A stretch of 27,542 bases of DNA from a virus. The position numbers and the translations under genes were made by a program. Of the stretch, positions 18,091-22,027 are shown piece by piece. The notes beneath the pieces are model-generated. The model saw only the letters and a program-made list of their open reading frames with translations, was not told the origin of the DNA and searched no databases. Position 1 is the first letter of the stretch; the number at the start of each line of letters is the position of its first letter. Location of the stretch: UHGV virus genome UHGV-0297460, one strand, 5' to 3'.

Positions 18091-19467
18091 TCATACGTCA
18101 GCCCCTTGTGCATATCGTCTGCCACGCGCAGCAGGTGCATTTGATGCTGTGCAAATCTGTCTGGCTTCATCCTGGTCACATGCAACAAAGTGTCCGTTGC
18201 AGAACCGCTGGTAAACCGTACCAAGTGAGCCAAAACGGTTTTTCGTCACGATGATTTCAGCAAATGGCGCGGCGCTACTGTTCTCGTCATATACCGCTTC
18301 CCGATAGAGCATGATGATTGAGTCTGCGTCCTGTTCAATGCTTCCTGAATCACGCAAATCTGCGTTTGTCGGGCGTTTGTTTGGTCGCTTCTCAACATCG
18401 CGTGAAAGCTGACTCAGGGAAATAACCGGTGTTTTCAGGTCTTTCGCCATCGCCTTCAGGCTTCCGGAGATGTGAGCAATTGCGAGGTCGTTGCGGTCTG
18501 CTTTCGGCTTCTCAATCAGGCCAAGATAATCCGCCATGATGAGTGAGAGGTTTGGATTTTCCTGTTTGTGCCGTTCTGCGATTGAGCGTATTTCTTCGAC
18601 CGATAATCGCGAGGCATCGACTACCCATACATCCAAATCTGCAAGCTGACTCATGCCGTTAGCAACACGTGCCCAGCCCTCGTCATCCATCGATGCAGGA
18701 TTTCGCAGTACGCTAACCGACATCCTCCCGGCGTTGGCAATGCTTCGCTCTGCAATCTGCAATGCGCTCATTTCCATTGAGAAAATCAATACCCCGCGCC
18801 GGACGTCAGAACCAGGAATAACGCGGCTTGCAACGCCTTCGGCAATCTTCAGCGCCAGTTCGGTTTTCCCCATACCAGGACGAGCAGCGATTATCACCAG
18901 GTCTTCCGCGTTCATCCCTCCGGTGATGGCATCAAGTTCTTCGATTCCGGTCTTCAGGGTATCGGACTCTTCTCCGTTCCTCAGACGCCTGTCAAGCGTG
19001 TCAGTGTAGTCGGTGATGATTTCCCCTAACCGTACAGGTTTAACCTCGTCACGGGGCTTTCTGATGGCTGAGAGACGTTTTACAAGTTCATCCATCGCCT
19101 GACTCAATGCGTCGATGGTTCCGCTTTGGATTGGTTCACGCATTTCATCCATGATTTCCAGCACCAGACGGCGGTGATAGTTATCCGCGACCATTCCGGC
19201 ATATCCCTTCAGGTTTGCGGCGCTCGGGCAGTTTTTGCTGGTCATCAGGATTGACGTGAAATGCTCCTCTCCGCACGCCTCGGCAACCATCAGCGCGTCG
19301 ATTAGGTTTCTGTTTCTCGCCTGCTTCCGGATAACCTCGAAGGCTTTCCGGTAGAGCGGAATTGAAAACGCTTCCGGCTCCAGCGTTGCAAGAACGTCAC
19401 TGGCGGTTGGAGTTAATCCACCAATCAGCAGGCCACCGATAACGCTCGCTTCGATATCCTGTCTCAT
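18091..19467 (-). CDS. Replicative DNA helicase, DnaB family (P22 gene 12 position)
   Basis: 458 aa; Walker [16 protein letters not shown], Walker B/H4 motifs ...[10 protein letters not shown]..., DnaB-like N-terminal domain. Confidence 0.9.
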
Positions 19468-20411
19468 GCAATCCCCCTGTCTGCAAACTTCCCTTCCCGA
19501 ACTCCCGTTAACGAGTCTTCTCTCAGCAGGTAATCAAAATCAGCCGTCCAGCCCGTGTCGTTGTCTCCGAAGTAAAACGGCTTGGCCTGATGCACAAACG
19601 CCCTGACATACGCTCTGAAACCGTCCACGTTTGGCGTTTTCAGTTGCGGGATGATTTTCTTCAGGCGGCGTTTTCGTTTCTCGTTGACCGCAACAGCGTG
19701 TGGCAGTCTGTCACCGACTTCGGTGTTGTAGGCGTTCAGGAAGGATTCGTAGTCGATTCGTTCTGCCTTGCGACGTTCAGGTTTAACCTGCCCATCGCCT
19801 CCCCCATTGGGGGGTAGGGGGGTATTATTTATATTCTTGTTAATACCTTCTTGTTCATGATGTGCGGTTGTTTGTGCGGCTTCATGTGCGCTTTCATGTG
19901 CGGCATGTACGCTGAAAGCCGCGCTATTGCTGGCTTCATCATGTGCGGCATCATGTGCGGTTGTTTGTGCGGCTTCATGTGCGGGTAAATTGTCCATTTT
20001 TTGAGCATATTCATGGTAATTTGTGATGGTTATCACACGGCCTTTTTGCTTCTCTCCATCAATGGAGATCATCCCCTCTTTCACAAAAACCTGAAGCATC
20101 CGCTCAACCTGATCACGGCTTGCTGGCTTGCCATGTCTGTCGCATAACTGAAGACCTAAATCAGCTGCTGTCACAACCAGTTGACCGGGTTGCAGATGCC
20201 ATTCATGACCTTTGAAATTCGCTTTGTATGGCTTTCTGGCGGCATTCAGGAGAAGGTTTTCCCACAGGGTGCGAAGATAAACATCTTTCGCCCATGACTG
20301 TTTCAGAATGCTCCGGTACAACGGAATGTAACCAGTTTTCTGGTTCTCCATCCTGTTGCTCCTGCGCTCGTGTGCGGCGCTGAAATCGTAGATTTTTGCT
20401 GTATTGCTCAT
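19464..20411 (-). CDS. Replication initiator / replisome organizer (lambda O-like), with iteron-encoded His/Ala-rich linker
   Basis: 315 aa; N-terminal replisome-organizer-like domain; internal repeats encode [14 protein letters not shown]...; immediately upstream of helicase. Confidence 0.8.
19857..19990. repeat. Putative replication origin iterons inside the O-like gene (two clusters of four 12 bp-spaced TGTGCGG repeats; 31 bp direct repeat at 19860-19890 and 19953-19983)
   Basis: TGTGCGG at 19861, 19873, 19885 (variant), 19897 and 19942, 19954, 19966, 19978; AT-rich tracts flank at 19820-19850 and 19985-20040. Confidence 0.65.
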
Positions 20412-20708: not shown

Positions 20709-21002
20709 TTAAAATTCCATTTGTATTTGATCAGAACGCTCGGTTGCCGCCGGGCGTTTTTTATTGGTGAGAATCGAAGCAACTTGTCGTGCCAATCGAG
20801 CCATGTCGTCGTCGACAACACCCCATTCAAGAACAGCAAGCAGCATTGAGAACTTTGGAATCCAGTCCCTCTTCCACCTGCTGATCTGCGACTTATCAAC
20901 GCCCACAGCTTCCGCTGTCTTCTCAGTTCCAAGCATTGCGATTTTGTTAAGCAACGCACTCTCGATTCTTAGAGCCTCGTTGCGTTTGTTTGCACGAACC
21001 AT
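20709..21002 (-). CDS. cII: Transcriptional activator CII (lambda cII-type)
   Basis: 97 aa from internal Met: MVRANKRNEALRIESALLNKIAMLGTEKTAEAVGVDKSQISRWKRDWIPKFSMLLAVLEWGVVDDDMARLARQVA... matches lambda CII as recalled. Confidence 0.92.
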   Translation of the reverse strand: MVRANKRNEALRIESALLNKIAMLGTEKTAEAVGVDKSQISRWKRDWIPKFSMLLAVLEWGVVDDDMARLARQVASILTNKKRPAATERSDQIQMEF

Positions 21003-21058
21003 ATGTAAGTATTTCCTTAACAAATAAGAAGTTATGCGCATCAACTTATGCGCGTTGT

Positions 21059-21104
21059 ATTCCCGCATTTCGGCGGGAATGAGGACCATGACTGTTAAAG
21101 AGCA
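21059..21104 (-). promoter_or_regulatory. nutR-like element: boxA-like TGCTCTTTAA followed by hairpin ATTCCCGC-cgaaat-GCGGGAAT; second hairpin plus U-rich run just downstream (tR1 candidate)
   Basis: Read on minus strand between cro stop and cII start. Confidence 0.45.
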
Positions 21105-21310: not shown

Positions 21311-21376
21311 ATTAAAGAACACTTAAATTATCCACTAAAGGAATCTTAAGTCAAGTTTATTTAAGATGTCTTAACT
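21311..21376. promoter_or_regulatory. OR region: three 18 bp operators (21311-21328, 21334-21351, 21359-21376) with divergent PR/PRM
   Basis: Palindromic half-sites ATTAAAG/CTTAAAT, ACTAAAG/CTTAAGT, ATTTAAG/CTTAACT with 4 bp centres; PR -35 TTGACT and -10 GATAAT on minus strand. Confidence 0.75.
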
Positions 21377-22027
21377 ATGAAAACTCAATTGATGGGAGAG
21401 CGCATTCGCGCTCGGAGAAAAGAACTCAAGATCAGGCAGGCCGCACTTGGAAAGATGGTCGGCGTGTCTAATGTTGCCATATCTCAGTGGGAACGCTCTG
21501 AGACAGAGCCAAATGGAGAGAATCTTCTCGCCCTGGCTAATGCGTTGAAGTGTTCCCCTGACTATCTGATGAAAGGAGAGGAAAGTCTTTCAAACATTGC
21601 CTATCACAGTAGGCATGATCCAAGAGGGTCATACCCTCTGATTAGCTGGGTGAGCGCAGGATGCTGGATGGAAGCTGTAGAACCATATCATAAGCGTGCA
21701 ATAGATAACTGGTACGATACAACCGTAGACTGTTCAGAAGATTCGTTTTGGTTGGACGTGAAGGGAGACTCAATGACGGCTCCGGCCGGTCTCAGTATCC
21801 CTGAAGGAATGATAATACTCGTCGATCCTGAAGTAGAGCCGCGTAACGGGAAACTGGTAGTTGCAAAGCTCGAAGGAGAAAACGAGGCAACTTTCAAGAA
21901 GTTAGTTATTGATGCAGGCAGGAAGTTTCTAAAACCACTTAACCCACAATATCCGATGATCGAGATCAACGGAAACTGCAAAATCATCGGCGTAGTTGTC
22001 GATGCAAAACTAGCAAACCTTCCATAA
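21377..22027 (+). CDS. c2: Prophage repressor, P22 C2-type (LexA-like autocleavable)
   Basis: 216 aa, MKTQLMGERIRARRKELKIRQAALGKMVGVSNVAISQWERSETEPNGENLL... near-identical to P22 C2 as recalled; C-terminal S24 peptidase region (GDSM...K). Confidence 0.95.
   Translation: MKTQLMGERIRARRKELKIRQAALGKMVGVSNVAISQWERSETEPNGENLLALANALKCSPDYLMKGEESLSNIAYHSRHDPRGSYPLISWVSAGCWMEAVEPYHKRAIDNWYDTTVDCSEDSFWLDVKGDSMTAPAGLSIPEGMIILVDPEVEPRNGKLVVAKLEGENEATFKKLVIDAGRKFLKPLNPQYPMIEINGNCKIIGVVVDAKLANLP

Follow-up and report, generated by a model that had tools for sequence, protein, structure and literature searches.

A probable replication origin of phage CUS-3 built from direct 12-bp repeats within the coding sequence of its own initiator

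Introduction

In phage lambda the replication origin consists of iterons and an AT-rich tract in the middle of gene O, whose product has been described as dimeric (PMC7466680). The four lambda iterons are 18 bp long with internal dyad symmetry (TCCCTC..GAGGGA), occupy codons 117-145 of 299 and are spaced 20, 24 and 23 bp apart, and the AT tract that follows them is purine-rich and 76% A+T. In a P22 record, a rep_origin is annotated inside gene 18 (codons 118-166 of 271), with three dyad sites (TCGGTAAA..TTTACCGA) placed 20 and 24 bp apart, an AT tract and ACCCCCTTACCCCCTAAAGGGGG, in that order. Among Shiga toxin (Stx) phages, 933W and P27 have six lambda-type iterons, and binding of O to iterons has been demonstrated in vitro (PMC7466680). 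Here we analyze a 27,542-nt stretch of viral DNA (UHGV virus genome UHGV-0297460, hereafter the window) that carries the O-like replication initiator gene of phage CUS-3, and we argue that an array of 12-bp direct repeats inside this gene, with the AT-rich tract and palindrome beside it, is very probably the vegetative replication origin of the phage.

Results

Eight 12-bp units lie between the two domains of the CUS-3 initiator

The open reading frame (ORF) at 19464-20411 of the window (minus strand, 948 bp, 315 amino acids) is 100% identical to gene O of Enterobacteria phage CUS-3 (CP000711.1, 30724-31671), a P22-like prophage of E. coli K1 strain RS218. The Pfam family Phage_rep_O (PF04492) matched residues 20-132 of the protein over the whole profile (56.9 bits, E = 3e-15; gathering cut-off 28.7 bits), and the same family is carried by the matches of the protein in protein databases; it was the sole Pfam match, which does not place O with Rep_3-type plasmid initiators. 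The repeats correspond to codons 143-185 of 315, between the N-terminal and C-terminal domains, and encode a repetitive AHxx, His/Ala-rich peptide that joins the two folded domains, and a gene for a DnaB-like helicase comes next. A previous reading of the window from its sequence alone (the sequence-only reading) had placed iterons inside an O-like initiator ORF, mirroring the lambda origin in O. Both points were borne out, since the repeats occupy the equivalent place between N- and C-domains, as does the gene 18 origin of P22.

Seven exact copies of TGTGCGG are present on the plus strand within 19861-19984, starting at 19861, 19873, 19897, 19942, 19954, 19966 and 19978, and the remaining slot, at 19885, reads TGTGCGC, with one mismatch. 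All units share one orientation and form two clusters of four, within which the spacing is exactly 12 bp. Thus, the spacing and clustering given in the sequence-only reading stood, although its eight identical copies proved to be seven exact copies and a variant, and the 31-bp direct repeat that it listed (19860-19890 and 19953-19983) is exact. Tandem Repeats Finder returned two period-12 arrays. Counted over both strands of the whole window, TGTGCGG occurs nine times, as compared with 3.8 ± 1.8 times in shuffled sequences, none of which reached nine.

In coding orientation (minus strand), cluster A (19937-19984) reads CCGCACATGAAG, CCGCACAAACAA, CCGCACATGATG and again CCGCACATGATG, in the same register as in 51 related loci, and cluster B (19856-19903) reads CCGCACATGAAA, GCGCACATGAAG (the variant core), CCGCACAAACAA and CCGCACATCATG. 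The clusters are separated by a central spacer of fixed length (33 bp, 19904-19936, minus strand), inside which lies a conserved central element, CCAGCAATAGCGCGGCT (19917-19933), whose family consensus is CCAGYAAYGGCGCGGCT. At the other edge of cluster B, the junction CATCATGAACAA (19851-19862, minus strand) carries the codons CAT, GAA and CAA.

The repeat core is conserved as DNA across related loci

Relatives of this array were collected from species-representative Enterobacterales genomes with an alignment-derived pattern, since a scan of genome contigs with a single sequence gave no relatives. This yielded 61 loci, in genera including Xenorhabdus, Yersinia, Citrobacter, Enterobacter, Pantoea, Proteus, Morganella, Brenneria and Sodalis, with N-domains 47-87% identical to that of CUS-3. 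Forty-eight of these loci, together with CUS-3 and two phage records, form a set of 51 genes with AH-type arrays, in which 349 units were registered. The core NCG[C/A][A/G]CAT was kept throughout the set. Unit position 1 is C at a frequency of 0.83, position 2 is C (0.99; 1.95 bits), position 3 is G (0.99), position 4 is C (0.80) or A (0.20), position 5 is A (0.40) or G (0.60), positions 6, 7 and 8 are C (0.96), A (0.93) and T (0.89), and positions 9-12 are nearly free.

Unit position 2 is a third-codon base, and although the codon to which it belongs specifies 12 different amino acids, 346 of the 349 units have C there. When the codon before the core specifies Pro it is always CCC (149 of 149), and Ala and Thr at this place are always GCC (92 of 92) and ACC (25 of 25). 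CCC is a rare Pro codon in enterobacteria. Residues encoded by the core vary (Ala/Glu at one place; His, Gln, Leu, Asn or Arg at another), while the core nucleotides stay. The codons CAT, GAA and CAA directly after the last unit are invariant in all 51 loci, third positions included, and their synonyms are never used. As a control, we examined the third positions of 14 conserved four-fold-degenerate N-domain codons in the same genes, where the median pairwise amino-acid identity of the N-domains is 70%, and these positions were near-random (∼0.5 bit). Because a C-ending codon is kept for 12 amino acids when control sites are near-random, we conclude that the constraint acts on the DNA and not on the peptide alone. 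The array thus appears to be a clean example of one stretch of DNA under selection for protein coding and, presumably, for protein binding at once.

An AT-rich tract and a palindromic element adjoin the repeats

Next to the repeats, on their transcriptionally downstream side, is an AT-rich, purine-skewed tract (19822-19861), a candidate DNA-unwinding element by its A+T content and nearest-neighbour energy. Positions 19825-19855 are 81% A+T and 74% purine on the coding strand, and both the least stable 30-mer (starting at 19823) and the least stable 40-mer (19822-19861) of the 27.5-kb window fall within the tract, despite the fact that it is coding DNA. The sequence-only reading had AT-rich DNA on both sides of the repeats; this holds for 19825-19855, but A+T enrichment is no more than moderate on the opposite side (19985-20040; 66% A+T, within roughly the least stable 1%). 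An AT-rich tract was found in all 51 related loci, with a mean of 78% A+T (range 70-88%) in the 40 nt after the last core as compared with 49% in N-domain coding DNA. No DnaA box with at most one mismatch was found near the candidate origin, the sole one being at 21328 in the operator region.

The tract is bordered by a C/G-rich palindromic element, ACCCCCCTACCCCCCAATGGGGG in coding orientation (19797-19824), which belongs to the C-domain module. It includes the palindrome CCCCCA-T-TGGGGG at 19801-19813, correctly noted in the sequence-only reading as lying beside the AT tract, and two tandem copies of GGGGGGTA at 19809-19824. The element is homologous to ACCCCCTTACCCCCTAAAGGGGG, which closes the annotated P22 origin, and the palindrome is common to mEp213, BTP1 and P22, whose iterons differ from those of CUS-3.

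Geometry is retained where unit sequence and unit number differ

The array spans 105 nt (3+3 units) in 28 of the 51 loci, 129 nt (4+4) in 22 and 93 nt (2+3) in one. It follows from these spans that the starts of the last cluster-A unit and the first cluster-B unit are always 45 bp apart. Loci with divergent N-domains (47-51% identity) carry different 12-bp units, of GATGAACCATCC, GAGGTAACAAAC or GTCGAA type, with unchanged geometry, and their best self-match lag is 69 bp, or 24 + 45. The central element (CCAGYAAYGGCGCGGCT) persists across these iteron classes, also at codons whose amino acid varies, one of them being NCC for four different amino acids; a site for a host factor and a site for shared machinery are both possibilities.

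Natural variants in unit number were found in E. coli. In strain MS7163 (NZ_CP026853.1), an in-frame collapse of 93 bp between the 31-bp repeats leaves three units and no central element, and in strain EC416 (NZ_AP027404.1) the array has expanded to 16 units (4+8+4) and contains the central element twice. The 4+4 arrangement with the 45-bp offset dominates among 57 parsable, closely related viral contigs. The two clusters evolve in concert, as seen in the 31-bp identical block of CUS-3 and in the identical spacers of clusters A and B in Yersinia loci.

Several further sequences in and around the array were considered. A degenerate ninth unit (coding GCGTACA) lies at 19906-19912, 9 bp upstream of the first cluster-B unit and off the 12-bp register; ∼12 of the 57 contigs have a perfect GCGCACA there, but the wider family does not conserve it. 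Close to the 5′ end of O, at 20371-20377, is an isolated exact core with the orientation of the array (TGTGCGG on the plus strand); we attribute it to chance, since relatives do not conserve it and the core 8-mer shows no enrichment outside the arrays (17 matches in 349 kb, the chance level). We also set aside an inverted repeat GCTTTCA/TGAAAGC (19890-19896 and 19913-19919), which is absent from the family consensus, and a TGTGAT..ATCACA dyad at ∼20022-20037, which is a product of Val-Ile-Thr-Ile-Thr codons and is lost in a Yersinia phage. A scan for inverted repeats found no dyad involving the CUS-3 cores, and the same scan recovered the dyads of lambda and P22.

An initiator residue covaries with a core base

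The N-terminal domain (amino acids 1-142, encoded by 19986-20411 on the minus strand) is presumed to bind the origin. An AlphaFold model of these residues, built from an input alignment of 27 sequences, has a helix at 82-88, a helix at 99-112 and a β-hairpin wing at 115-129, with a mean predicted local distance difference test score (pLDDT) of 71.8. It contains one winged-helix domain, as opposed to the two of Rep_3-type initiators. Foldseek comparison of the model with the PDB gave generic winged-helix matches alone (CRP, CodY, MarR), all of them weak (E ≥ 3.5e-3), which singles out no specific structural relative of the domain, and a search of PDB sequences gave no match. The helix at 99-112 is the predicted recognition helix, with residue 100 at its start.

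Core base 5 is uniform within each genome, with three exceptions in 349 units; 22 loci have A and 29 have G. All 22 A-type loci carry Asp at residue 100 and all 29 G-type loci carry His, and residue 82 separates the two types just as perfectly. The A/G state has switched at least three times on a neighbour-joining tree of the N-domains. This pattern fits a direct reading of core base 5 by residue 100, which the model would place at the start of the recognition helix.

Repeats are inherited with the N-terminal domain

The C-terminal domain of CUS-3 O (amino acids 190-315) is 94.5-97.6% identical in mEp213, HK544, Stx phage 1717, BTP1 and many others, whereas their N-domains, like that of P22 gp18, are unrelated in sequence to the CUS-3 N-domain. 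BTP1 combines the P22 N-domain and P22 repeats with a CUS-3-type C-domain and palindrome, and mEp213 combines an N-domain of the HK97 gp54 type and TTAGCTAA-type repeats with the same C-domain and palindrome. One type of C-domain is therefore found with three N-domains (in BTP1, mEp213 and CUS-3), each accompanied by its own repeats. Conversely, of 50 loci at the species level, 48 join an N-domain and repeats of CUS-3 type to a lambda-type C-domain, after which comes a lambda-P-like gene, and P22-type C-domains always have a DnaB-like gene after them. Judged from these combinations, the repeats are coupled to the N-terminal DNA-binding domain, and the C-domain is coupled to the helicase or loader, as expected if the repeats are the binding sites of the N-domain.

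The full CUS-3-type gene is present in 272 of 5,426 complete E. coli genomes, and ∼440 further E. coli genomes share only nt 1-377 of the queried gene region (window 19464-19840). This puts the boundary of DNA shared with phages of other N-domain/iteron types at ∼19840 and the module junction within the AT tract. The candidate unwinding element thus appears to double as a recombination joint between a specificity module and a helicase-partner module.

Carriers of the CUS-3-type origin include K1 strains and avian pathogenic E. coli (APEC), some Stx2a phages of O157:H7 (98% identity) and prophages of many Enterobacterales genera. An equation of the module with 'Eru2' of Llarena et al., suggested by a helicase accession match, was dropped, since the Eru2 module of O157:H7 TW14359 (NC_013008.1) has in common with CUS-3 the helicase (WP_001248388.1) and the O C-domain (window 19464-19840) and not the N-domain and repeats. 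Eru2 has been described as lacking lambdoid O/P, and CUS-3 O is itself a Phage_rep_O member; given this membership and the shared C-domain, the 'non-lambdoid' label of Eru2 may deserve re-examination.

Two observations concern database records of this gene family. A 2.7-kb entry labelled 'Staphylococcus phage SA 1298 Kay' (OR850084.1; UNVERIFIED_ORG, wastewater) encodes an enterobacterial-type O and a DnaB-like helicase ∼90% identical to that of CUS-3, so that either the label is wrong or the entry is a contaminant, almost certainly. Database homologues of the N-domain are for the most part truncated, 'partial' replication proteins (146-250 amino acids), which suggests that short-read assemblies often break within or just past the repeat array.

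The array lies within a lambdoid early-right gene order

The genes around O follow the lambdoid early-right order on the minus strand: a P22-type cro, cII, the O-like gene and a gene for a DnaB-family helicase. The helicase gene (18091-19467, minus strand; P22 gene 12 type) overlaps the O stop codon, and its product, the presumed partner of the O C-terminal domain, matched Pfam DnaB_C with 261 bits, the DnaB N-terminal domain and NCBIfam DnaB families. A cI-type repressor gene is on the plus strand at 21377-22027. A pR-like promoter (TTGACT-16-GATAAT; 21327-21354, minus strand), recognized by its sequence and the gene order, precedes cro-cII-O-helicase, so early rightward-type transcription would cross the candidate origin. 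A strong intrinsic-terminator-like hairpin (12 pairs and a T run) on the plus strand at 20733-20760 lies antisense to the 3′ end of cII (minus strand, 20709-21089), at the position that the terminator of the oop antisense RNA occupies in lambda and P22; an Rfam search gave no match in the window, this hairpin included.

Discussion

The anatomy of the site, the selection seen at the DNA level, the co-inheritance of repeats and N-domain, and the positional homology to the lambda and P22 origins lead us to place the vegetative replication origin of CUS-3 at 19797-19984, in the linker-coding part of its own initiator gene, with a probability of roughly 85%. These comparisons support the origin interpretation of the sequence-only reading. 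We infer the steps of binding, melting and helicase loading as follows. The N-terminal winged-helix domain of O would read the 8-bp core CCGCACAT, set head-to-tail every 12 bp in two clusters of four, and the resulting nucleoprotein complex would destabilize the adjoining AT tract at 19822-19861. As in the gene 18/12 system of P22, the O C-terminal domain would then recruit the phage DnaB-type helicase, which the next gene encodes, and transcription from pR would pass across the site, as in lambda. A dimer per dyad, as in lambda, seems less likely here than one N-domain per unit, given that the units are direct repeats found in groups of three as well as four.

A more specific picture can be offered tentatively, as one possibility that we consider less likely than its alternatives taken together. 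Since the 12-bp unit exceeds the helical repeat, aligned bound domains would underwind the DNA and could help to open the AT tract. O proteins of this clade would then form a differently built 'O-some', in which single winged-helix domains bound head-to-tail to 12-bp units pass the strain to the AT tract, equal clusters 45 bp apart flank CCAGYAAYGGCGCGGCT, which is independent of iteron specificity and could be read by a host factor or shared machinery, and Asp or His at residue 100 acts as a one-residue switch of base specificity.

Several points weigh against the assignment of an origin to this site. The CUS-3 record in GenBank (CP000711.1) lists O as 'phage replication protein' with no rep_origin annotated, we found no experiment on a CUS-3-type initiator in the searchable literature, and a study of Stx-phage replication modules (PMC8044961) makes no mention of iterons or origins. 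Published biochemistry of Stx O proteins deals with lambda-type iterons alone (PMC7466680). The P22 origin feature is itself annotated as 'similar to phage lambda', that is, by similarity. The CUS-3 units are without the dyad symmetry of lambda and P22, so the lambda mode of binding is not simply transferable. The structural model is of moderate confidence and resembles only generic winged-helix folds, repeats within one genome are non-independent observations, and co-transfer of neighbouring DNA could partly explain the covariation of residue 100 with the core.

The alternative that survives best, although we consider it unlikely, is that the repeats are real binding sites that serve regulation (autoregulation, titration, copy control of the handcuffing type or a transcription roadblock) and that replication starts elsewhere. 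Iteron arrays of plasmids do double as control elements, and the CUS-3 origin is placed here from sequence comparison. However, the site is collinear with the lambda and P22 origins, down to an AT tract with the lowest-stability 30- and 40-mers of the window; neither the window nor the flanks of the 51 loci contain another cluster of cores; and the lambda iterons at the equivalent place are the origin (PMC7466680).

We regard as very improbable the explanation that the repeats are a low-complexity, His/Ala-rich flexible linker, born by slippage and selected as peptide only, with no role for the DNA. A repetitive AHxx peptide between two folded domains is what such a linker would look like, and the in-frame changes in length (three units in MS7163, 16 in EC416) fit one that tolerates variation. 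But third-codon bases are among the most conserved positions of the unit, with C in 346 of 349 units across 12 amino acids, Pro is encoded by CCC only, and replacements of Ala by Glu and among His, Gln, Leu and Asn are tolerated while the nucleotides are kept. In addition, the control synonymous sites are near-random, the 45-bp offset of the clusters is fixed in all loci, and the type of repeat follows the DNA-binding domain. The sequence-only reading had named a purely coding low-complexity linker among the findings that would overturn it, and both the synonymous and the amino-acid-changing positions contradict it. It is no more credible that the array is a hotspot of recombination and module exchange or a contingency locus, conserved by repeated gene conversion and not by selection for binding, since gene conversion within genomes, although in keeping with the concerted clusters (the 31-bp block of CUS-3, the identical spacers of Yersinia), the collapsed and expanded variants and the exchange junction in the AT tract near 19840, leaves unexplained both the core and 12-bp/45-bp geometry shared across genera with saturated synonymous sites and the recognition-helix residue that tracks a core base, and repeat lengths in multiples of three allow no on/off switching.

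That a lambdoid origin lies within a gene is a textbook principle, and the basic assignment is in this sense unsurprising. The direct 12-bp units, the bipartite layout with its fixed 45-bp offset and the conserved central element appear to be undescribed in the searchable literature, where we found no account of this type of direct repeat; older papers on P22, HK620 and HK97 may hold remarks on it. The family also offers a natural experiment on initiator specificity, with several unit sequences in one geometry, a link between a single residue and a single base, and variants of three and 16 units. Because replication of Stx phages controls toxin output, the origin of non-lambda modules is of practical value.

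Comparison with known systems

Like lambda, CUS-3 has its candidate origin in the initiator gene, between an N-terminal origin-binding and a C-terminal partner-binding domain, with several sites and, beyond them as pR transcription runs, a purine-skewed AT tract (81% A+T in CUS-3, 76% in lambda), and lambda O belongs to the same Pfam family, Phage_rep_O. In contrast to lambda, CUS-3 has eight 12-bp, head-to-tail units without dyads, arranged 4+4 around a conserved 33-bp spacer, its core is unrelated in sequence, and its C-domain is of the P22 gp18 type, paired with a phage DnaB-like helicase and not with lambda P. CUS-3 therefore lacks the dyad-symmetric ∼18-19-bp iterons at ∼20-24 bp spacing that go with a dimer per iteron, and the sequence-only reading was right that unit and phasing differ from those of lambda. 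The prophage origins of 933W and P27 are likewise within O, with an iteron number that differs from that of lambda and lengthens the protein, but their iterons and their O/P are of lambda type.

The resemblance to P22 is closest in the C-terminal half. The CUS-3 C-terminal domain is 60.5% identical to gp18 over amino acids 190-312, which is the only region matched by tblastn of CUS-3 O against P22, and the N-domains align poorly in a multiple alignment. Both phages have a DnaB-like helicase gene next and the order repeats, AT tract, ACCCCC..GGGGG palindrome, the palindromes being homologous, whereas TCGGTAAA-type repeats are absent from CUS-3. The alignment with the lambda and P22 origins that the sequence-only reading had proposed as a check thus gave the same order of parts.

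Plasmid iteron origins (F, R6K, pPS10, RK2) have direct repeats in one orientation beside an AT-rich unwinding element, and their Rep proteins are winged-helix initiators that bind the direct repeats as monomers. CUS-3 shares the direct repeats, the AT-rich neighbour and, by prediction, the winged-helix initiator. The plasmid iterons, however, are ∼17-22 bp long at ∼22-bp spacing, each read by two winged-helix domains, whereas CUS-3 has 12-bp units with an 8-bp core, a single predicted winged-helix domain and an array in coding DNA. The centromere parC of plasmid R1, in which two clusters of five 11-bp direct repeats are bound by ParR, differs in fold and function (partition, not replication), and we draw no family assignment from it. 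The analogy is one of geometry, with short repeats of nearly a helical turn in two equal clusters around a central spacer, and suggests that the initiator and its array could likewise form a wrapped or helical protein scaffold.

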